Part shown: positions 7,912 through 41,906 of the stretch, piece after piece
Numbering within the stretch: position 1 is the stretch's first letter
How the letters are laid out: every line of letters starts with the position of its first letter
Source: Myxococcales bacterium
GTDB lineage: Bacteria; Myxococcota_A; Bradymonadia; UBA7976; UBA1532
NCBI GenBank assembly: GCA_009692505.1
Contig: SHZC01000003.1
Span: 9,169-73,168 of the forward strand
DNA: 64,000 nucleotides
Reading direction: 5' to 3'
The notes under the pieces: generated by a model
The model's input: the letters and a program-made list of their open reading frames with translations, nothing else
Database searches by the model: none
Told to the model about the DNA's origin: nothing
Program-made: the position numbers and the translations under genes

Positions 7912-9230
7912 GCAAATACCTCAGTCAACGCGTCGTCGATGAGCAGAAGGCCCCGGTTTAAGTCGTCTTCGTCGATGCAGAGCGGCGGGGCAATAAAGAG
8001 ATAGTTCCAGCGAAGGAGAATATGCAGCCCGCGCTGATGCAACGCGAGCTTCAGGCGCGCCGCCTTCGAGCCGGGGATCAGCGCGCCATTATAAGGCACG
8101 AGCGGCGTCTTCAAGACCCGGTCGGTGACGAGCTCGAGCGTGCCGAAGAGGCCGAGGTTTCGCGCGTCACCGACGACCTCGTGCTTGGCCTTCAGCGCCT
8201 CAAGGCCCCGTTTCAGGACCTCACCCATTCGCGCCGCGTTCCCGATCAAGTCGTCGCGTTCGTAGAGGTCGATCGTTGCGTTGGCCGCGGCGCAGGCGAT
8301 GGGGTGGGCGTAGTTCGTCAGGCCGCATTGGAGCGCGCGCTCGTCGAAGTGCGCGGCGACGCGGTCGGTCAGCCCCACGGCCCCGAGCGGCGCGTACCCG
8401 CTCGTGATGCCCTTGCCCATCGTGATGAGGTCCGGCTGCACGTCCCAATGATCGACCGCGAACCACTTGCCCGTGCGGCCGAAGCCCGTGAAGACCTCGT
8501 CGGCGACGAGCAGGATGCCATACTTGGTGCAGAGCTCCCGCAGGCGGGGCCAGTACTCGGGGGGTGGCACGAAGCCCCCGTTCGCGCCCGTGACGCCCTC
8601 GATAAAGACCGCGGCGATGCGCTCCGGGCCCTCCATCTGGATGACGTGCTCGAGGTGCTCGGCGCACTGCACGCCACAGCCGGGGTAGGTCTGTCCGAAG
8701 GGGCAGCGGTAGCAGTACGGATCCTCGATGCGTTCGACGCCCCAGAGGCCGGGCTCGGCGGCCCAACGTCGCGGATCACCCGTAAGCGACAGCGCGCCCA
8801 TCGAGGCCCCGTGATAGCTCCGCCGCCGCGCGATGATCTTGCTTCGGCCGGTCACGAAGCGGGCCATCTTGAGGGCGTTCTCATTCGCCTCGGCGCCGGA
8901 GAGGCAGAGGAAAAACTTGGAGATCCCCTCGGGCGTCACTCGCGCGAGCCGCTCCCCGAGCGCGGCTTTGGCCTCGAAGACCGCCGCCGGATGAGCGCAT
9001 GAGAGCGTGCTCGCCTGACTTGCGATGGCCTCTGAGATCGAGGCCTGACCGTGGCCGGCGTTGCAGTTGAAGACCTGGCTCTCGAAGTCCAGAAACTCGC
9101 GCCCGTCGTGATCGACGAACCTCGCACCACGCCCTCCAGAGATGCGGACCGACGCCGCGCTGCCCTGGGCGCTCCAGGTGAACATGACGTGCTTGCGCTG
9201 CCGCGCCTCCAGGTCGTCTCCCGCGCTCAT
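7908..9230 (-). CDS. Class III (omega-type) aminotransferase
   Basis: Carries CLSGAEANENALKMAR, VADEVFTGFGRTGKWFA and DLITMGKGITSGYAPLGAV (PLP lysine context). The start is taken at ATG 9230 (MSAGDD...), which forms an ATGA overlap with the upstream stop. The longest ORF would start at 9272. Confidence 0.85.
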   Translation of the reverse strand: MSAGDDLEARQRKHVMFTWSAQGSAASVRISGGRGARFVDHDGREFLDFESQVFNCNAGHGQASISEAIASQASTLSCAHPAAVFEAKAALGERLARVTPEGISKFFLCLSGAEANENALKMARFVTGRSKIIARRRSYHGASMGALSLTGDPRRWAAEPGLWGVERIEDPYCYRCPFGQTYPGCGVQCAEHLEHVIQMEGPERIAAVFIEGVTGANGGFVPPPEYWPRLRELCTKYGILLVADEVFTGFGRTGKWFAVDHWDVQPDLITMGKGITSGYAPLGAVGLTDRVAAHFDERALQCGLTNYAHPIACAAANATIDLYERDDLIGNAARMGEVLKRGLEALKAKHEVVGDARNLGLFGTLELVTDRVLKTPLVPYNGALIPGSKAARLKLALHQRGLHILLRWNYLFIAPPLCIDEDDLNRGLLLIDDALTEVFA

Positions 9231-13935: not shown

Positions 13936-15458
13936 GTCGTGCTCCGAGCCTTGGAGTCCTGCGCGGCGAGCAAGCCGTCGAGTTGGGGATTGGCCGTCCG
14001 CTGCGCCGACGTGCCGGCCATCACGGCCACCGGATAGGTGCACAGACGAGGCGCGGCCGAGCCCGCCGGGAACCAGTTACCGCTCTGCCCCACGCCCCCA
14101 AAAGGCAGGAGGCCCGACGCGCCGTTCGTGCTCCGATTGAAGTTCAGAACCCCGGCGGCGACCTCGTCGTAGAAACGCTCGAAGGTCTCCGGCCGCGACG
14201 AGAAGAGCGAGGCGCTCAGCCCATAGTCGTTGGACCCGGCACGTCGAAAGGCGTCGTCTTCGTCCGCGGCGACCTCAAACGCGACGTGCGGGCCGAAGAG
14301 CTCCTCGTGCACGATCGCCTCGTCCCCCGAGACCTCGTAGAGACCCGGCGTGACATAGATCCCGCCACCGGAGGGACCACCGATCGCGTTCGCCTCGACC
14401 AAGACCCGCGCGCCTTGGGCCCGGGCGGCGGCGAGGAGCGCGAGGTAGCGGTCACGAGCCGAACGCTGGGCGAGCGGCCCCATGAACGTGGACTCGAGGG
14501 TGGGGTCGCCCGGCACGATCGCGGCGAAGGCCTCGGTCAGCGCGTCCCGGAGGCGCGACGCGATAGCCGGCGCAGCGATGACGCGGCTCGTGGCGGTGCA
14601 CCGCTGGCCGGTGGTGAGTAACGCGCCGAGCACGATCTCGCGGACACAGTGGTCGAATCCAAGGCCTGCCGGATCGTCGAGCAGATCGTCCAGGACCACC
14701 GCGGGGTTCTTGCCCCCCAACTCCAGGCAGACCTTCTTGAACGGCTGGTCGAACGTGGCCTGCCGGATGTGCCGCCCCGTCGCATAGGAGCCGGTGAAGA
14801 TGAGGCCGCGCACGTCCCGATGGACCGCGAGGGCCGCACCGGTGGCCGCGAGCCCGTGGATGAGGTTGAAGACCCCGTCCGGCAGCGCGGCGTCGGCGAA
14901 GAGCGCGGCGTACCTCTGCCCCGTCAGAGGGGTCAGCTCGCTCGGCTTGGCGACGACTGTGTTCCCGGTGAGGAGCGCGGGCACGAGGTGCGTATGGACG
15001 AGGTGCAGGGGGAAGTTGAACGGCCCGATGATCCCGACGACCCCAAGCGCGTGAAAACGCTGTTCACCCGGGGCGCCGACGGGGGCAGGCGGGAGCTCGG
15101 AGTCGAGCTGCGCGAGCACGCCGTCAATCTTCGCGCCGAGCAAGCTCACCTCGGCGCGGGACTCGGCGATGGTCTTGCCCATCTCGGCGGTGATGGCCTC
15201 CGCCAGACCTGCGGCATGACGTGGGAGGGCCGCCTTGACGCGCAGGAGGGCGTCGGCTCGAGAGGTCCGACCCGCGCGTCGCCACGCAGGAAGAGCGGCC
15301 CGAGCGGCAGAAACCGCAGCCTCGACTTCATCGACATCGGCGCGGGCCTCGAAGACGATCTCATCGGCCTTCGACGGGTCCGTCGAGGCGAAGCGGTCGC
15401 CCCGCCCCGACGCGACGAAATCGCCGCCAATGAACGACCCACGAAACGGCTCGGTCAT
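13932..15458 (-). CDS. NAD(P)-dependent aldehyde dehydrogenase (semialdehyde dehydrogenase type)
   Basis: Carries FIGGDFV, FNFPLHL, VAKPSELTP, ELGGKNP and TTGQRCTA (catalytic Cys), plus EELFGP. The start is taken at ATG 15458 (MTEPFRG...), an ATGA overlap with the udg stop. Confidence 0.85.
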   Translation of the reverse strand: MTEPFRGSFIGGDFVASGRGDRFASTDPSKADEIVFEARADVDEVEAAVSAARAALPAWRRAGRTSRADALLRVKAALPRHAAGLAEAITAEMGKTIAESRAEVSLLGAKIDGVLAQLDSELPPAPVGAPGEQRFHALGVVGIIGPFNFPLHLVHTHLVPALLTGNTVVAKPSELTPLTGQRYAALFADAALPDGVFNLIHGLAATGAALAVHRDVRGLIFTGSYATGRHIRQATFDQPFKKVCLELGGKNPAVVLDDLLDDPAGLGFDHCVREIVLGALLTTGQRCTATSRVIAAPAIASRLRDALTEAFAAIVPGDPTLESTFMGPLAQRSARDRYLALLAAARAQGARVLVEANAIGGPSGGGIYVTPGLYEVSGDEAIVHEELFGPHVAFEVAADEDDAFRRAGSNDYGLSASLFSSRPETFERFYDEVAAGVLNFNRSTNGASGLLPFGGVGQSGNWFPAGSAAPRLCTYPVAVMAGTSAQRTANPQLDGLLAAQDSKARSTT

Positions 15459-16252
15459 GGCTTTCTCGGGGCGCGCTCGAGGCGGGTCATGACCATTTTT
15501 AGGATCTCCCAAGCCTTACGTTTTTCGTCAGGGTTCTTGACCAAATAAGCCGGCGAATAGCCGACGAGGACCGGTCGATTCGAGACGGTGTGCCACTTGC
15601 CGAGGAGTCCTCGGACGCCGGACGCGGTCCCCAGAAGGATACGCGTCGGCAGCGCCCCACAGGTGACGATGACCTCGGGCGAGACGAGCTCAATCTGGGC
15701 GAGCAGGAAGCGACGGCAGGCGGCGATCGAGTCGGCCTCGGGCTCGACGGCGGCGACGCCTGGGTGGCACATGACGACGTGGCCCAGATAGACGCTCGTG
15801 CGACCGAGCCCCATGGCCCCGATCATCTTCTCGAGGAGCGCGCCGGCTTCGCCCCCATACGGCTTGCCGGTCGCGTCGTCTTCAATCGCCGGCGCGTCGA
15901 GGACGAAGAGTACGCGGGCGTCGACGGGGCCATGCCCAAAGACGATATGGCTCCGGGTGTTCGAGAGCGGGCAGCGCTGGCAGTCCCCGACCTCGGCGCG
16001 CAGGGCCTCGAGGGCCGCTTGGCGATCGGCCGGTGAACGGACGAGCACAGGGACGGCCGTGGGCGCGGGCCCCTGAGGCTGGCGATCACGAGACGCGGGC
16101 GGCGTGGGTGCGTCGTGGGCAAACGGGCGGTCCGGCGGATTGAACGTCGGCGCTTTAAAGCCCGGCGGCACGGGCAGAGCGTGGTCGCCCGTCTCCTTGT
16201 GCCAGAGCAGGGCCCCCCGCATCGCCGAGACGAGGGCGCGAAGTTCGTCCAT
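15455..16252 (-). CDS. udg: Uracil-DNA glycosylase superfamily protein, family 4-like (4Fe-4S type), divergent motifs
   Basis: CQRCPL...VFGHGP...VLFVLDAPAIEDDATGKPYGGEAGALL...VVMCHP...IAACRRF...GYSPAYLVKNPDEKRKAW shows four Cys spaced as in family 4 UDGs. A Pro-rich N-terminal extension of about 100 aa is present. The start is taken at ATG 16252 (MDELRALV...). The longest ORF would start at 16291 inside the repeat. Confidence 0.7.
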   Translation of the reverse strand: MDELRALVSAMRGALLWHKETGDHALPVPPGFKAPTFNPPDRPFAHDAPTPPASRDRQPQGPAPTAVPVLVRSPADRQAALEALRAEVGDCQRCPLSNTRSHIVFGHGPVDARVLFVLDAPAIEDDATGKPYGGEAGALLEKMIGAMGLGRTSVYLGHVVMCHPGVAAVEPEADSIAACRRFLLAQIELVSPEVIVTCGALPTRILLGTASGVRGLLGKWHTVSNRPVLVGYSPAYLVKNPDEKRKAWEILKMVMTRLERAPRKP

Positions 16253-16257
16253 CACGT

Positions 16258-16326
16258 TCAAGCTAATCGTCGAGCGTCGCAGGAGGCCCATCGTTGCTGA
16301 GCGACGAGGGCGCGAAGTTCGTCCAT
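16258..16326 (-). other. Mini-ORF 2 (22 codons, MDELRALVAQQRWASCDARRLA) created by the junction duplication
   Basis: The ATG is at 16326. The TGA at 16258-16260 lies 5 nt before the udg ATG at 16252. It corresponds to the tail of track ORF 16258..16746. Confidence 0.3.
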
Positions 16327-16331
16327 CACGT

Positions 16332-16373
16332 TCAAGCTAATCGCTGAGCGACGAGGGCGCGAAGTTCGTCCAT
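16332..16373 (-). other. Mini-ORF 1 (13 codons, MDELRALVAQRLA) created by the junction duplication
   Basis: The ATG at 16373 lies 5 nt after the coaBC TGA (16379-16381). Its own TGA (16332-16334) lies 5 nt before the next ATG. Whether it is translated is untested. Confidence 0.3.
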
Positions 16374-16378
16374 CACGT

Positions 16379-17602
16379 TCAAGGCGACGGGCTCCCGGCG
16401 AGCCGCTCGGCCATGAATACGACGAGACGTTCGCCGATCGCGGCCTTGCTGAGCACCGGGAGCTCGACGATGCCCTCTGCGGTGACCAGGGAGACGCGGT
16501 TGGTGTCGACCCCGAAGCCCGCGCCCTCAGCCGTGATGTCGTTGGCGACGATGAGATCGCAACGCTTGCTGATGAGCTTGGCACGAGCATATTCCAAGGG
16601 GGGACCGGACTCCGCCGCGAAGCCGATGAGCAGCGGGGAGGCGCCGACTCGGGAGGCCCCAAGCTCGGCGAGAATGTCCGGATTTCGGACGAGCTCCAGC
16701 GACTGCACTTCGTCAAGCTTCTTGACCTTCGTCGCGGACACGGCACGGGCCCGGTAGTCCGAGACGGCGGCGGTCATCACCACGACGTCGACCCCCGGCA
16801 GGTGCGCCATGACCGCCGCGTGCATCTCGATCGCTGTCGTCACCGCTACGGAAGAAACCCCCGGCGGCAGCGGCAGGGAGCAGGGCCCGTGGATGAGCGT
16901 GACCTCGGCCCCGGCCCGAGCGGCAGCTGCGGCGATTTCAAAGCCCGCCTTGCCCGTCGACGGGTTGCTGAGGAAGCGAACGGGATCAAAGAACTCTCGC
17001 GTCGGTCCCGCGGTCACGAGCACCCGCCGACCCACGAGCACCCTCGGCGTCAGCGCGGCGACGACGGCGTCGACGATGGCCTCGCTCAAGGCGAGCCGAC
17101 CGGGCCCCACCGCGCCACAGGCGAGCGCGCCGGCGTCGGGCTCGACGATCTGGTACCCCCTCTCGCGCAGGATCCGGAGGTTGTTCTGCGTGGCCTCGTT
17201 CTCGTACATCGCCGTGTTCATCGCCGGGGCGAAGAGCACGGGCGAGCGGCGCGGCCTCGTGGCGAGCAAGACCGTCGAGACCACCTCATCGCCAATCCCG
17301 GCCGCGCACTTCGCCAGGATGTTCGCGGACGCCGGCACGACGAGGAGGACGTCGTTCTCCTGCGCGAAGGCGATGTGCCCGATCTCCATCTCGTCTGAGG
17401 GATCGAGCGTGCGGGTCAGCACCGGGAGGTGCGTGATCGCCTGGAACGTGAGCGGCCCGACGAAAGCCTGCGCGTTCGCGGTCATGGCCACCTGAACCAC
17501 CGCGCCGGCCTTCTGGAGCAAGCGCACGGTCTCGACCGCCTTGTAGGCGGCGACGCCCCCACAGACGGCGACGTGAACGCGGCGATTGACCAGCGACGAC
17601 AC
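16379..17602 (-). CDS. coaBC: Bifunctional phosphopantothenoylcysteine decarboxylase / phosphopantothenate-cysteine ligase
   Basis: VAVCGGVAAYKAVETVRLLQKAG, PAMNTAMYEN and VLVTAGPTREFFDPVRFLSNPSTGKAG, with C-terminal AAVSDYR. The longest ORF starts at 17668. GTG 17602 (VSSLVNRRVHVAV...) gives the usual short N-terminus, but the start remains uncertain. Confidence 0.85.
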   Translation of the reverse strand: MSSLVNRRVHVAVCGGVAAYKAVETVRLLQKAGAVVQVAMTANAQAFVGPLTFQAITHLPVLTRTLDPSDEMEIGHIAFAQENDVLLVVPASANILAKCAAGIGDEVVSTVLLATRPRRSPVLFAPAMNTAMYENEATQNNLRILRERGYQIVEPDAGALACGAVGPGRLALSEAIVDAVVAALTPRVLVGRRVLVTAGPTREFFDPVRFLSNPSTGKAGFEIAAAAARAGAEVTLIHGPCSLPLPPGVSSVAVTTAIEMHAAVMAHLPGVDVVVMTAAVSDYRARAVSATKVKKLDEVQSLELVRNPDILAELGASRVGASPLLIGFAAESGPPLEYARAKLISKRCDLIVANDITAEGAGFGVDTNRVSLVTAEGIVELPVLSKAAIGERLVVFMAERLAGSPSP

Positions 17603-17952
17603 GGCGCGGGATTCTACGTCACGGCATCCTGAGGGTAAAGGCGGGCGGCGGGGGCCGGGGGGGGGCACCGCATCGAGCCGCGGCCCTGTGCCGACCTACC
17701 CGGCGACGAACCTCATCGAGCGCCTCACCGGGTTCAAGGTGCAATTGCCTTGGGGAGATCACGCTTCTGGGGTCGGTCGCGCTCGCCTCCGGCTTGACGG
17801 CGAACCTCGTCAATCCCAGCCGCTCGGTTGCGTGCGGCCCTGGCGACTGATACGCCTTGGGCGGCCCTTTTCTTCTCCTCGACTCCACGCGCGCGGCACC
17901 GTTCAATCTGCCGGACTTCGTACAACTGGCCCCCGGCGGAGGAGTTTTCCAC

Positions 17953-20900
17953 ATGTCCAACTGGCGCCGCCCCCAACTGGCCCCCGGCATCTACGACGAG
18001 CCGATCAGCCAGCACCTGCAAGAGCAGCTCGAAGGCCTGACCTCTGGCTTCCTGGTCGAGCGCCACACGTCCACTGATGCCGAGCCGGCCGGACTACCGC
18101 TGGAGTCACTCCTCGGGGACGCCATCGGCCTCGCCCTGCAATCTGTGGGCGACAAGCGAACAGCGATCCTGGCGCTGGCCCAGGAGGTGCTCGCGGTGCT
18201 GCACAAACACGCCCCACGTGCATTTCCCCGCGCGGGCGAACTGCAACTGCTCAACGAACGGTTGCTGTCCATCGCCGAGCAGCCAGCCGCAGCGCCCAAA
18301 CGCCCGCGGGGGTCGCTGCACGCGTCCAGCCTGCTGGTCAATGCCGAGGGCGAGCAGCTGCACGACCACCTACGCAGCGAGTTCGACAGCGCCGACCGGG
18401 TGGACCTGCTCTGCGCGTTCGTGAAGCTCAGCGGCTTCGAGAAGGTTCGCACAGAGCTCGAGCGTCACTGTGTATCGCGCGGCCGGCCGCTGCGCGTGTT
18501 GACGACGACCTACATGGGGGCCTCGGACGCGGTGGCCATCGAGCGGCTGGCTGCTCTGGCCAACGCCGAAGTCAAGGTCTCGTACGACGAGCACACCACG
18601 CGCCTCCACGCCAAGGCCTGGGTCTTCCACCGCGCGAACGGCTACTCCACGGCGTATGTCGGCTCGTCCAATTTGTCGCACGCGGCGCAGACCGATGGGC
18701 TGGAGTGGAACGTCCGCGTCACCGAGCGAGGACAGCCCGCCCTGGTCGCCCAGATGGTCGAGACCTTCGAGCAATACTGGGGCGCGCCGCATCAGTTCGA
18801 GTCATTCCGGCCGGGGCACGCGGGGGATCGCGCGCGGCTGAGCCGGGCCCTCTCTCCGAGCGCCCGCGCGCCGGACGGGACCACCCTGCAATTCGACATC
18901 GAGGCCAAGGACTTCCAGAAGCCCATCCTGAGCGAGCTGGTCGCCGCCCGTGTGCTCGGCAGACACAAGAACCTGCTGGTCGCCGCGACCGGAACCGGTA
19001 AGACGGTCATGGCGGCGCTCGACTACCAGCAGCTCCGGCAGGAGGGCGCGGTCGACACCCTGCTGTTTGTGGCGCATCGGCGGGAGATCCTCGACCACGC
19101 CCTCGCCACGTTCCGCGCCGTCCTTAAGGTCAGCGGCTTCGGCGAGTTACTGTGCGAGGGCGAGAAGCCGGCGATTGGTCGACATGTGTTCGCCTCGATC
19201 GACTCGCTGGCAGGGAACACTGTGGACCCGGCTGCGTTCGACCTGGTGATCATCGACGAGGCGCATCACTCCCCCGCTGACAGCTGGGAAGGGCTCCTGA
19301 AGCGCATCCGTCCCAAGCAGCTTCTGGGCCTGACCGGAACGCCGGAGCGCGCCGACGGGCTGGACCATGAGCGCCACTTTCCGCGTCCGTGGATCGGCAA
19401 TCTGCGGGTCTGGACGGCGATTCCGCACGCCCTAGTGCCGTTTCGATACTACATGCTCGACGTCCAGGGCGTGGACCTTCGCGACGTCGCGTGGACGGCG
19501 GGCAAGTATGCCCCACTGGCGTTGGCGGGGAAGCTGATCGGGGCGGCTGAAGTCTTCGTGCACCGCGCGGTCCAGGCCGTCACCGAACGCATCGCGCGGC
19601 CGGACAACCTGCGGGCCATTGCCTTCTGCGCGGACGTGCGCCACGCGGAAGAGATCCACCGGCGCTTCCTGGGCCACGGCTTCCGCAGCCAGGTCCTGAC
19701 CGGCACGACGCCAAAGCAGGCGCGACGCCAGGCGCGGTCGGACCTGGACAGCGGACAGATTCAGGTGCTGTGCGTGGTCGACATCTACAACGAGGGCGTC
19801 GACGTCCCCAACGTCAATACCCTCTTCTTCTTCCGCCCCACGGAGAGCGCGACGGTCTTCCTGCAACAGTTGGGACGCGGCCTGCGCCGGGCGCCCGGCA
19901 AGTCCGAGCTGGTGGTTTTCGACCTGACGGGCCGCCAGCACCTGAACTTCCGCTTCGACCGCAAGCTCCGCGCGCTGCTCGGCCACACCCCACGTGAGGT
20001 CCATCACCTCGTGAAGGCCGGTTTCGGACGATTGCCCGCCGGGTGCCATCTGCACTTCGACGAGCAGGCGCGCCAAGACATCCTCGACCAGATCAAGCGC
20101 GCGATCCCCTCGGACGAGACGGGGATCCTCGCGCTGTTGCACGAACCGGCCCATTCGGAGCTGTCGCTGGACGAGTTCCTGAAAGAGACAGACGTCGAGC
20201 TCAATGACGTGTACCGCCAGCGCCGGTCCTGGACAGGGCTCAGGCGGAAGTTGCACCTGGATCGAAGGACGCTGGCCGACGGTGAGCCGATCGTCCTCGA
20301 CAGAGTCCACAAGCTGACCCATGTGGGCGATGAGGCGAGGCTGGAGCTCTGGCAGCGGCTGGTGGACTTGGAGCCGACCCGTTCCGAACGCGAACACCGT
20401 CTGGCCCGCATGCTGTTTGCGGTGCTCTATGGCAAGGAAGCGGCGGCCAACGGTGAGGCCGAGAGATTGTGGAGCACGCATGCCAGTGTGCGGGACGACG
20501 TGCGGGGGTTGATTCCCGTGTTACGGCGGCTGAATGCGATCCTGCCGGAGTCGCACACCCTGTTGCAGGACGTGCCGATCGTGCTTCACGCGCGGTACCT
20601 CGGGGTCGAGCTGAGCGCGGCGTTTGACGACCGGAGCAGCACAGGTTGGTTCCGCGACTACTTCACCGGCGTGGAGACCATCGCGGGCGGTCGCTTCGAC
20701 CTGCTGCTGGTGACGATGGAGAAGGCCGCCGCGACCAAGGAACACTTGCGGTATCGAGACTTTCCGCTCTCGGACAGGCAGTTCCACTGGCAGTCGAAGG
20801 CCCGCACGACCCTGGACTCCAAGGATGGGCGGCGGCATCTGCATCCGGAGCGGGAAGGCGTCACGCCGCTGCTGCTGGTGCGCGAGCTGGCCCATGAGGC

Positions 20901-28991: not shown

Positions 28992-30439
28992 TTTTCCTCC
29001 GAGGCGGTCGCTTCGGCGAGCAGCTCGTCGAGCCGCTGCTGGCGGGTCTCATCGTAGCCGAGCAGCTGCCCCGAGGCCCGGGCGAGCGCGGCATAAACCG
29101 GCAAGAGCGAAGGCGCGTGCTGCTTGAGCGCGAGCAGGTGGGCCGCGACGGCCTCGAGATCGAAGCGGGCGAACGGGCCGGTCATCGCCTGCGCCGGAGG
29201 CCAGCGAGACGCCTGCTCAAGCGTGCCGCGCATCAGGGGCAGGAGCAGAGCTCGGGCGTCCTCTTCGGAGAAGCCCAACGCCTGGAGCAGGGTACAGCCT
29301 CCGTGCAAGAGCGTCGTCGTGAAGTTGCCGGCGTAGACCGCGCTCGCGTGGTAGCTCGCCTTGCCGCCGTCGGGGATGTTTACGGCCCGCCCGCCGAGTG
29401 CTGCGACGAGCCTCGCGGCCATGTCAAGCGCCTTCGGGTCGCCCTCGGTCGCGAACGCCGCCCCGCGCAGGGCCGCCGCCGCTGTTTGGGGGTCCGAGAG
29501 GGACTGGAGCGGGTGCATGGAGCCGGTCGACGCGCCGCTCGCCGCGCAGGCCGACAGGACCTCGCGCCCGAGGCGAGCGGCCAGGTGGAGGACGACGGTC
29601 TGCGCGGTGACGAGCCCGGTCTCGGCGAGACGAGCTGAGGTCTCCCGGAGCGCACCGTCGGGGACCGCGATCAGGATCACGTCCGCGGAGAGCGGCGGGC
29701 GCGGGAGGTCGCCATCGCGTCTCGACCACTGGCCGACGACCGGCACCGAGGCTTCGCGGAGGGCAGCGGCGAGGCAGGAGGCCGCCCGACCGCGACCCAC
29801 GAGGAAGACGCTCGGCAGCGTCTCGCCCGCGCTTGTGTAATGGGTCCGGGCGAGCGAGAGCACGCCGCTCGGGAGCCACCTCGCGGCCTCCGCCTCATCG
29901 CTCGAAGAGAGGGCCGCACGCAGCGTGGTCGAGGAGACGTCGGGCAACGTCGGGCCCGTCGTGGCCCAGCGAGAGCCCTCCAAGCGAGCCAAGGCCGCTT
30001 CGTGTCCAGGCCGCCCGAGGACGTAGAGCGGCCAGCGCGCGACCAGGTCGTCGAAGCGATACCACCTCGACGCCTCCGTCAGGTTGTCGGCACCCACGAC
30101 CCAGGCAAAGTCGCGGTCGGCGTGGCGCGATGAGAGCAGCTCCAGCGTGTCGTAGGTCAAGCTCGGCCCTTCCCGCTCGACCTCGACGGTGTGGACAGAT
30201 ACGCGGCGTCGATCGAAGCCAGCGATGGCGACCTCGAGCATCTGCACGCGCGCCTCGAAGGGGGCCATCCGCTTGCCGAACGCGTGGACGGCCGTCGGCA
30301 CGAGCCAGACCTCATCGACCTGACCGAGCAGCCATGTCACGGTGAAGAGGTGCGCCCAGTGTGGGGGATCGAAGGCCCCGCCGTACAAGGCCACACGCCG
30401 CCGCGGCTGTCTGACCTCGACCTCAGGCGTGAGGCTCAC
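28988..30439 (-). CDS. nadD: Fusion: nicotinate-nucleotide adenylyltransferase (NadD) + Rossmann/DUF2520 domain
   Basis: N-terminal half: VALYGGAFDPPHWAHL (H/TxGH-type motif), GADNL and the ISSTxxR-like VSSTTLR. C-terminal half: VFLVGRGRAASCLAAAL, ILIAVPDGAL, GSMHPLQS and YHASAVYAGNF...TGPFARFD, typical of DUF2520 proteins. Confidence 0.75.
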   Translation of the reverse strand: MSLTPEVEVRQPRRRVALYGGAFDPPHWAHLFTVTWLLGQVDEVWLVPTAVHAFGKRMAPFEARVQMLEVAIAGFDRRRVSVHTVEVEREGPSLTYDTLELLSSRHADRDFAWVVGADNLTEASRWYRFDDLVARWPLYVLGRPGHEAALARLEGSRWATTGPTLPDVSSTTLRAALSSSDEAEAARWLPSGVLSLARTHYTSAGETLPSVFLVGRGRAASCLAAALREASVPVVGQWSRRDGDLPRPPLSADVILIAVPDGALRETSARLAETGLVTAQTVVLHLAARLGREVLSACAASGASTGSMHPLQSLSDPQTAAAALRGAAFATEGDPKALDMAARLVAALGGRAVNIPDGGKASYHASAVYAGNFTTTLLHGGCTLLQALGFSEEDARALLLPLMRGTLEQASRWPPAQAMTGPFARFDLEAVAAHLLALKQHAPSLLPVYAALARASGQLLGYDETRQQRLDELLAEATASEEK

Positions 30440-31011: not shown

Positions 31012-32183
31012 GAGTATCTCAAGAAAGGGCGTCTCTCGACGGCGAAGCGCTCGGCCTCGACCGCCCACCGACCGTAGATCGCCTCGACGTCGGCACCGGC
31101 GTCGATGGCCAACCTGGCCTCGTCCCCACCGAAGAGCAGGTCGATGGCGAGCCGGTCCTTGACGAACTCGTAGACCTCACTGCGCCAGCACAGGGCCGGT
31201 CCGTAGAGGCGGCGGATCGTCGCGAGCAGATGAAGTCCGACTCTCAGCGAGGGGAACCGCGTCCGGTCAATCACGTGCAAGGCCACCCCCCCGATGGCCC
31301 GACCGGCGAACTTGTGAAACGTGGGGCGGAAGTACAGCGGGCGAAAGAGCACGCCGGGTAACTCCAGCGCGTCCAACGCGCTCGACAGCTCGAAGGGATT
31401 GATGAAGTCGGCCCCGATCGTCTCGAACGGGCGGGTCGAGCCCCGGCCTTCGCTGAGGTTTGTGCCCTCGAGGAGGCACATGCCCGGGTAGACGACCGCC
31501 GTCTCCAGCGTGGGCATGTTCGGGGAGGGCTGCACCCAGGGCAGGCCCGTCTCATCGAAGAGGTGTTGCCTGGACCAACCCAACATCTCGACGACCGTGA
31601 GGCGCGCGCCGAAGCCCTCGCGATGGTCAAGCAGGCTGACGACCTCGCCGATGGTCAAGCCGTGACGGGTCGGGAGCGGCCAGAGCCCCACGAAGCTCAG
31701 GAAGTCCTTGCCCGTCAGGCCGCCCTCGACGACGACGCCGCCGAGTGGGTTCGGTCGGTCGAGCACGATGGCCTCGATGCCAGCCCGAGCCGCGGCGCGC
31801 ACACAGAGGGCGGCGGTATAGATATAGGTGTAGTACCGGCTGCCGATGTCCTGCAGATCGATGAGCAGGACGTCGAGGTCGGCGAGGTCTTCCGGTCGGG
31901 GCGCGAGGCTCTCCTCGTCGGCGCCGTAGAGGCTTCGAACGCTCGCCCCCGTCACGGGCTCCCGGGCGTCGTCGTCGACGTGGATCATGTCCTGCGCGTC
32001 GGCCCAGATGCCGTGCTCCGGACCGAAACACCGTACGATGTTGACGGCCGCTTCGCGACAGCGGTGCGTGATGTGAACGAGGTGCCGGTCCACGCTCGCC
32101 GGGTGACAGACCAGCCCCACACGGCGGCCCCGCAGCGAAGCGAAGCCCTCGGCCACCATCCGATCGAGTCCCGTGGCGACCAT
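31008..32183 (-). CDS. namZ: DUF1343 protein (exo-beta-N-acetylmuramidase NamZ family)
   Basis: RVGLVCHPASV, FGPEHG, DVLLIDLQDIGSRYYTYIYT, VLDRPNPLGG and PTRHGLTIGE. Confidence 0.8.
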   Translation of the reverse strand: MVATGLDRMVAEGFASLRGRRVGLVCHPASVDRHLVHITHRCREAAVNIVRCFGPEHGIWADAQDMIHVDDDAREPVTGASVRSLYGADEESLAPRPEDLADLDVLLIDLQDIGSRYYTYIYTAALCVRAAARAGIEAIVLDRPNPLGGVVVEGGLTGKDFLSFVGLWPLPTRHGLTIGEVVSLLDHREGFGARLTVVEMLGWSRQHLFDETGLPWVQPSPNMPTLETAVVYPGMCLLEGTNLSEGRGSTRPFETIGADFINPFELSSALDALELPGVLFRPLYFRPTFHKFAGRAIGGVALHVIDRTRFPSLRVGLHLLATIRRLYGPALCWRSEVYEFVKDRLAIDLLFGGDEARLAIDAGADVEAIYGRWAVEAERFAVERRPFLRYS

Positions 32184-41776: not shown

Positions 41777-41906
41777 CCGAACGGCGAACAGGCCAGAGGC
41801 CAAACGGCGAACAGGCCAGAGGCCGAACGGCGCACAGGCCAGAGGCCGAACGGCGAACAGGCCAGAGGCCGAACGGCGCACAGGCCAGAGGCCGAACGGC
41901 GAACAG
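41777..41906. repeat. Intergenic tandem repeat, about 5.65 x 23 bp (CCRAACGGCGMACAGGCCAGAGG)
   Basis: Units start at 41777, 41800, 41823, 41846 and 41869, with a partial unit at 41892. Variation occurs at only two unit positions. Sits in the divergent region between icd (start 41677) and the histidine kinase (start 41956). Confidence 0.95.

Follow-up and report, generated by a model that had tools for sequence, protein, structure and literature searches.

A tandem array of stop-start junctions between coaBC and udg in a Myxococcales bacterium, a probable relay of mini-open reading frames

The stretch of DNA analysed here (the window; 64,000 nt, positions 9,169 to 73,168 of contig SHZC01000003.1 in the Myxococcales assembly GCA_009692505.1) carries the junction between coaBC and udg three times in a row on its minus strand. 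We consider this array to be, probably, a local, copy-number-variable relay of mini-open reading frames (mini-ORFs) that resembles the interspersed repetitive units of mycobacteria (MIRUs) and has survived by keeping termination-reinitiation coupling. The structural part of this reading is near certain. The feature is real; its kind is known, but the variant and the lineage are new. Taken alone the locus is modest; the more interesting result is a frame rule that arrays of this kind follow throughout the genome.

The repeated element is a 34-nt minus-strand word, CTTGAACGTGATGGACGAACTTCGCGCCCTCGTC, which occurs at 16350..16383 (copy 1), 16303..16336 (copy 2) and 16229..16262 (copy 3) with no mismatches. 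Read along the mRNA, the copies are spaced by 47 nt and then by 74 nt. Identity between neighbouring repeats reaches 41 nt in each pair. From 100 shuffles, 0 matches to the 34-mer were expected, and no other copy was found in the whole 4.94-Mb assembly, a metagenome-assembled genome (MAG) of 254 contigs and 86.6% completeness. Every copy contains TTG-AAC-GTG-ATG in one frame, with TTG and GTG placed 9 and 3 nt before ATG. TTG overlaps TGA at all three junctions, which makes each of them a TTGA (-4) overlap and at the same time a stop-N5-ATG arrangement. The junction is best read as the TTGA overlap; starts of homologues align at ATGA or TTGA.

In copy 1 the coaBC TGA (16381-16379; the gene ends CCT TGA) overlaps the TTG at 16382-16380, which is followed by GTG 16376 and ATG 16373. 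Mini-ORF 1 (16332..16382, minus strand) encodes (M/L)NVMDELRALVAQRLA, with 16 codons from TTG and 13 from ATG 16373; translated from the ATG it reads MDELRALVAQRLA. Its TGA is that of the TTGA in copy 2. Mini-ORF 2 (16258..16335, minus strand) encodes (M/L)NVMDELRALVAQQRWASCDARRLA, with 25 codons from TTG and 22 from ATG 16326 (MDELRALVAQQRWASCDARRLA from the ATG), and its TGA is that of the TTGA in copy 3. Copy 3 forms the udg start region with TTG 16261, GTG 16255 and ATG 16252. The first-pass annotation had described the triplication and its 47/74 spacing, the coaBC TGA in copy 1 with an ATG 5 nt on, mini-ORFs of 13 and 22 codons that end in the next copy, and udg opening in the third. All of this was borne out: the copies are exact and unique in the genome, and translation gave two mini-ORFs that chain stop to start. 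Between the copies lie spacer 2 (16263..16302, minus strand), which has 40 nt, includes ATG 16291 and finishes at its 3' end with GATTAG, and spacer 1 (16337..16349, minus strand; GCTCAGCGATTAG), which equals spacer 2 less 27 nt between two GCTC(A/G)(G/A)C direct repeats. A Shine-Dalgarno (SD)-like GGGAG (16392..16396, minus strand) lies 9 nt before the first TTG and precedes copy 1 only. Before copies 2 and 3 stands GATTAG, and an SD-like word is lacking.

NTGA (-4) and TGATG (-1) overlaps are the preferred motifs of termination-reinitiation coupling, NTGA being the commonest, and a short ORF can serve solely to deliver ribosomes (review PMC12548453, citing Huber et al. 2019, 2023). On this model, ribosomes that end coaBC would restart at the TTG, GTG or ATG of copy 1 and read a mini-ORF of 13-16 codons. 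Termination on the TGA overlapping the following start would lead to a second restart and to a mini-ORF of 22-25 codons. A further stop on TTGA would be followed by a restart on udg. The mini-peptides themselves would have no function. The array would persist because its periods end the frame of each extra start at the next start, so that udg and the genes chained to it by overlaps stay coupled. Each hand-over probably loses some ribosomes, and copy number may slightly lower udg output; such lowering may be a side effect and not a purpose of the array.

The junction was compared with that of relatives. Eleven family-level relatives with a coaBC-udg pair all have a single overlapping junction (ATGA in six, TTGA in two, GTGA in two and TGATG in one), with an SD-like GGAGG or GGGAG 5-9 nt upstream, inside the coaBC tail. 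A search of 5.8 billion proteins revealed no relative between the species-level cluster and at most 45% identity, and a search for related loci with UDG returned distant PVC-group UDGs only. An exact-pattern scan for the 34-mer in genome and metagenome contig collections, which possibly lack the window's own and near records, gave no match. Strain loci were gathered by exact-protein look-up in metagenome assemblies.

Three alleles were seen (types A, B and C), and every species-level strain found has at least two copies. Type A has two copies with a period of 73 nt and was present in 15 contigs from at least 13 assemblies and at least three studies, with MEGAHIT-style and scaffold-style names. 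Its spacer is GCTCGGCAACGGTTGCCTCCTGCGACGCTCGGCGATTAG, and the four type A contigs that were compared are 97.2-98.8% identical to the window. Type B has two copies with a period of 74 nt. It comes from one Logan contig (L018) of SRR8561391 and is 99.6% identical to the window. In this co-occurring strain (L018:1-140) a change of the coaBC TGA to TGC extends coaBC by two codons, to a TGATG that forms a -1 overlap with the copy 1 ATG; copies 1 and 2 differ at three positions. Two-copy contigs number 16, from at least 14 assemblies, at least two assemblers and at least three studies. Type C, with three copies and periods of 47 and 74 nt, was found in the window and as the same allele in two ENA contigs of 92,080 and 93,126 nt. 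As in the window, 87 nt separate the coaBC end from the 278-aa udg call in both; the two contigs represent two UDG haplotypes, one residue apart. Logan contigs of three runs terminate within the 34-mer, some 30 nt from its beginning or on its very first bases. Logan contigs were presumably built with k = 31, and breaks inside the 34-mer are expected for a real repeat longer than k-1. SRR8561390 and SRR8561391 are Lake Baikal metagenomes from 1250 m and 1350 m. To judge from these assembled sequences, the duplication is real and of the variable-number-tandem-repeat type, and the extra copies are not an artefact. Copy number between sister genomes, a comparison proposed with the first description of the array, varies between two and three.

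From the distribution of alleles we conclude that the two-copy state is older than the diversification of the species, and that the 47-nt unit was added recently, in the deep-Baikal lineage. The earlier suggestion of a recent slippage or duplication event holds for the 47-nt unit, and the junction is indeed duplicated, but the two-copy state is common to all strains found. In the simplest path suggested by the sequences, the ancestor would have had a coaBC stop overlapping the udg start (TTGA), as in the single junctions of the family-level relatives. In the species ancestor, the opening 34 nt of the junction and head of udg would have been duplicated, the copies being separated by a spacer of about 40 nt. 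In the Baikal lineage of the window the 34-mers would then have undergone slippage or unequal recombination, which added one unit (74 + 74), and a 27-nt slippage deletion between 7-nt direct repeats would have shortened the new unit (47 + 74). In types A and B the spacer opens and closes with the same 7-mer (GCTCGGC ... GCTCGGC GATTAG), and removal of the 27 nt between the 7-mers yields the exact form of spacer 1 in the window (GCTCAGC GATTAG). In other arrays of the genome the unit visibly consists of the head of the downstream gene and the tail of the upstream gene, from which the coaBC–udg spacer differs. A likeness of the spacer to coaBC C-termini ('RRLA' before a stop) was considered and dropped; it had no support at the DNA level.

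The spacer evolves faster than its flanks, and the array drifts. Over its 40 nt the window spacer is separated from that of type A by four substitutions and one indel, against 0.7 differences predicted from the flanks (P ~8e-4). Against type B, the closest strain, the window array has 6 differences in 108 nt, with 0.42 expected (P ~5e-6). Because of a one-base length difference, the mini-peptide tails of type A (period 73; ARQRLPPATLGD before the stop) and of types B and C (AQQRWASCDARRLA before the stop) lie in different frames. The tails are not kept between strains, and therefore the peptides are not under selection. What is kept is the position of the stop. In every allele the mini-ORF stop adjoins the next start, either as the TGA of TTGA (types B and C) or as the TAG of GATTAG, 1 nt before TTG (type A). 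The first-pass annotation had claimed that each duplication preserved the exact geometry; the stop beside the next start is indeed preserved, but type A has a period of 73 (3n+1), and its mini-ORF ends at the spacer TAG.

We then looked at the genome as a whole. Coding frames were called by codon-position GC and short-range direct repeats were listed; an array entered the set if its unit had at least 15 nt and a supported gene had its stop codon in the first copy. Inside genes, the period of repeat pairs was a multiple of three in 331/333. At the 18 loci where the first copy holds the gene's stop, the base period was 3n+2 in 16 (P = 1.7e-6 against equal thirds; 4.5e-6 excluding the coaBC–udg locus). 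In eleven arrays a co-directional coding ORF begins within the last copy; the period is 3n+2 in ten of these (P = 1.3e-4). At an NTGA overlap a period of 3n+2 causes the ORF from one start to end on the next TGA. Both non-3n+2 arrays are relay-compatible as well: on contig C11 the unit, of 31 nt, has the pattern TAG-N7-ATG, and on C234, where the unit has 18 nt, one ORF crosses the whole array and ends on the ATGA of the next gene. The genome-wide 3n+2 pattern points to selection for ribosome hand-over.

Besides coaBC–udg, ten co-directional junctions carry relay mini-ORF arrays, with units of 18-95 nt and a 3n+2 period in 9/10. Several are clear counterparts of the present locus. Perfect copies of a 77-nt unit with GTGA were found at C5:12459-12612. 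A 74-nt unit with ATGA lies on C62, which has two junction arrays (32074-32169 and near 29900), and a 95-nt unit with TTGA at C220:29223-29401. Units of 20 nt occur on C131 near 981 (GTGA) and on C252 near 3803 (ATGA, four copies). A 29-nt unit with ATGA has at least 10 copies at C22:19844-20040 and C214:185-435 and spans a contig break. The remaining junction arrays are at C200:3267-3317, at C155:20153-20200 and on C234 near 11932. The 29-nt ATGA unit (ATGAGCGGCAGC...GGGGAGTCCAA) closes C22 and opens C214; the two contig ends evidently mark a break of the assembly within an array that had 15 copies or more. In 400 kb sampled from two family-level relatives no clear junction arrays were seen, a sample too small to conclude from.

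Several observations weigh against a relay under selection. That the mini-ORFs are translated and that udg depends on them is something we infer from the sequence. SD-like words precede 36-46% of the ~494 NTGA junctions in the genome, over a background of 15-22%. More than half of the NTGA junctions thus have none, and the missing SD before copies 2 and 3 is no proof of reliance on a relay; its loss there is suggestive, no more. Furthermore, immediately ahead of the start, unit and spacer together close two of the frames, frame 0 with TAG and frame 2 with TGA, the third frame being that of the start itself. With nearly any period the outcome at this locus is consequently either an in-frame fusion or a stop that adjoins the start, and the locus alone is weak evidence for selection. 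No source for the 40-nt spacer was found anywhere else in the genome, and it resembles neither the coaBC tail nor the udg head more closely than shuffled sequence does. The three-copy contigs may come from the same Baikal read sets. The frame rule, too, reaches beyond visible gene pairs. Periods of 3n+2 prevail, too, among stop-codon arrays behind which no co-directional gene is visible, namely in those on C127 near 9708, C214 near 2465, C235 near 21542, at C203:5311-5393, on C81 near 7119 and on C178 near 108 (periods 29, 29, 32, 23, 29 and 32); the array on C11 near 12078, with a period of 31, is the non-3n+2 case in this group. Among the few arrays that separate convergent or divergent genes, 3n+2 is again the more frequent (5 vs 3). 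The tie of the frame rule to coupling is strong but not exclusive, and not yet clean.

These points bear on how the relay is to be weighed against other explanations. The earlier annotation had raised the idea of an 'attenuator ladder', an adaptive rheostat in which copy number is selected and sets the flow of ribosomes from coaBC into udg and the eight chained genes, with strains tuning it. We consider this unlikely. Strains about 98-99.6% identical do differ in copy number, the native SD stands before copy 1 only, the downstream genes are chained by overlaps, and the frame rule shows that the arrays are visible to selection. However, only three alleles were seen, they follow strain relatedness, and all 15 period-73 contigs have two copies, with no sign of recurrent switching. 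Spacer and copy 1 drift freely, and a purifying filter on neutral duplications explains the frame rule equally well. RNA folding, which had been suggested for one to three copies, does not help the rheostat either: the array gave no structure signal (z = -0.99), and the predicted openness of the udg start was 0.34, 0.45 and 0.46 with 1, 2 and 3 copies. A role as RNA structure or riboswitch-like element was rejected on these values, start accessibility being unchanged by copy number, and an internal promoter was rejected as the array has no promoter-like site. Neither RNA structure nor promoter nor conserved peptide supports a dedicated regulatory device. Slightly less probable again is a neutral duplication with no relay at all, in which udg would be initiated at copy 3 or at ATG 16291 and the phasing of the mini-ORFs would be a by-product of the two-frame stops. 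The TAG and TGA before the start make the phasing nearly automatic, most NTGA junctions manage without an SD, and the spacer evolves fast, all of which would suit it. Against it stands the 3n+2 skew at 16/18 independent loci. In addition, ATG 16291 is missing from the period-73 allele and the extension that it would add from every relative, and no SD or promoter-like signal precedes copy 3.

Two further explanations concern the origin of the copies. Mis-joined strain variants in the metagenome graph could produce false copies, and a 254-contig MAG from samples with co-existing strains is open to such an error. Yet 19 contigs have at least two copies, and these were obtained with different assemblers from many samples; the three-copy spacing recurs in three contigs and two haplotypes. 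Moreover, a 34-nt repeat is far below the read length and the final k-mers (k141 contig names), so that single reads fix the path. We regard an artefact as very improbable. More improbable still, in our view, is that a mobile element of the MIRU type inserted itself where udg starts. Insertion at start codons, with coupling at -4, has been described for MIRUs (PMC12548453), and the spacer has no recognisable local source, but a second spacer or unit is absent from the 4.94-Mb assembly, the other arrays of the genome are each made from their own junction sequence, and a 34-nt 'target duplication' fits no known element.

The relay reading that we favour, a passive relay tolerated for the coupling it preserves, can be placed beside known systems. 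MIRUs, discovered in Mycobacterium tuberculosis between senX3 and regX3, lie in tandem between operon genes of the same direction. A unit measures about 50-80 nt, the number of units differs between strains, and each one forms a small ORF with -4 coupling to the gene that follows (PMC12548453; PMC3544749). The coaBC–udg array shares with them the tandem intercistronic units of about 40-100 bp in the orientation of the flanking genes (47 and 74, and 73 in sister strains), the small ORF per unit with -4 overlaps (TTGA at all three junctions), and a strain-variable copy number (two in 16 contigs, three in the window and two ENA contigs). MIRU loci are reportedly mixtures of long and internally deleted units of 77 and 53 bp (Supply et al. 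1997); the present array likewise mixes 74- and 47-nt units. The difference lies in dispersal. MIRUs are thought to be mobile and form one sequence family at many loci, whereas the coaBC–udg unit is locally made: its 34-mer, spacers and 74-nt unit have no other match in the 86.6%-complete assembly, and the units of the other arrays are unrelated. MIRUs are also mycobacterial (Actinomycetota). The WhiB family had no match in the genome, although a control Corynebacterium genome was matched, and the organism is therefore not an actinobacterium. As far as its sequence tells, the coaBC–udg array works like a MIRU but is not one. The genome also contains a single transfer-messenger RNA gene (G000:C154:38435-38792) with the tag peptide ANDDFDLAVAA.

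Coupling of the known NTGA/TGATG type fits the co-directional overlaps of this locus, with TTGA at every junction of the window and TGATG for coaBC in type B. Known NTGA coupling involves a single junction of two real genes, whereas here two mini-ORFs are interposed, which would add two extra hand-overs. With leader-peptide attenuators and upstream ORFs the array has in common that short ORFs placed before a gene can influence its expression. Attenuators stand ahead of an operon, whereas this array lies between two genes, and it has no regulatory codons, alternative hairpins or terminator (no terminator-like site was found in it). Identity with a leader-peptide attenuator was rejected on the lack of hairpin alternatives, terminator and conserved peptide.

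Of the flanking genes, coaBC (16379..17602, minus strand) encodes 407 aa from GTG 17602, in a longer frame that is open to 17668. An identical protein sequence carries the Pfam domains Flavoprotein and DFP, and the product is 58-69% identical to coaBC of the 11 relatives. A sigma-70-like promoter match (TTTACC-17-TAGAAT; 17611..17639, minus strand), a match to consensus only, lies just upstream of GTG 17602 and favours the 407-aa coaBC over the 429-aa frame. It was the only sigma-70-like site in 15400-18000. udg (15455..16261, minus strand) encodes a family-4-type uracil-DNA glycosylase (Pfam UDG) of 268 aa from TTG or 265 aa from ATG, and a chain of eight downstream genes with 4-nt overlaps follows it. 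Elsewhere in the window, between divergent genes, 41777-41906 holds a near-perfect 23-nt array of about 5.6 copies, GGCCAGAGGCCGAACGGCG(A/C)ACA, which has a 3n+2 period and no stop/start junction.

The annotated start of udg is affected by the array. Gene callers put it at ATG 16291 in spacer 2, which gives the 278-aa product of public collections. This ATG is missing from the common period-73 allele, and the 13-residue N-terminal extension that begins there has no counterpart in relatives. For these reasons the public 278-aa UDG is probably an over-call, 10-13 residues too long, and udg probably starts at TTG 16261 or ATG 16252. The N-terminus LNVMDELRALV of the window UDG is collinear with MTPRHELLAWV (from ATGA) and LTPRQELLAWL (from TTGA) of relatives, and the ancestral udg start is therefore the TTG of TTGA. 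Start codons at such arrays are misplaced by gene callers, and longer arrays break assemblies.

If the relay reading is correct, coupling in an uncultured, non-actinobacterial freshwater bacterium would be strong enough to filter the junction duplications that survive, and MIRU-like arrays could arise in place without a mobile element. A wider proposal, which we put forward tentatively and hold to be possible but doubtful, is that locally made 'junction minisatellites' form a general class beyond mycobacterial MIRUs and Actinobacteria, in which stop/start overlaps of operon genes are copied in situ again and again, selection for ribosome hand-over allows the survival of relay-compatible periods only, and copy number acts as a reversible, heritable dial on distal genes. 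Such a class would offer a natural genome-wide read-out of termination-reinitiation, and the dial would here act on udg and its eight-gene overlap chain. The locus also provides a natural series, with one copy in relatives, two copies in two phasings and three copies, that could be used to measure the cost of each stop-restart.

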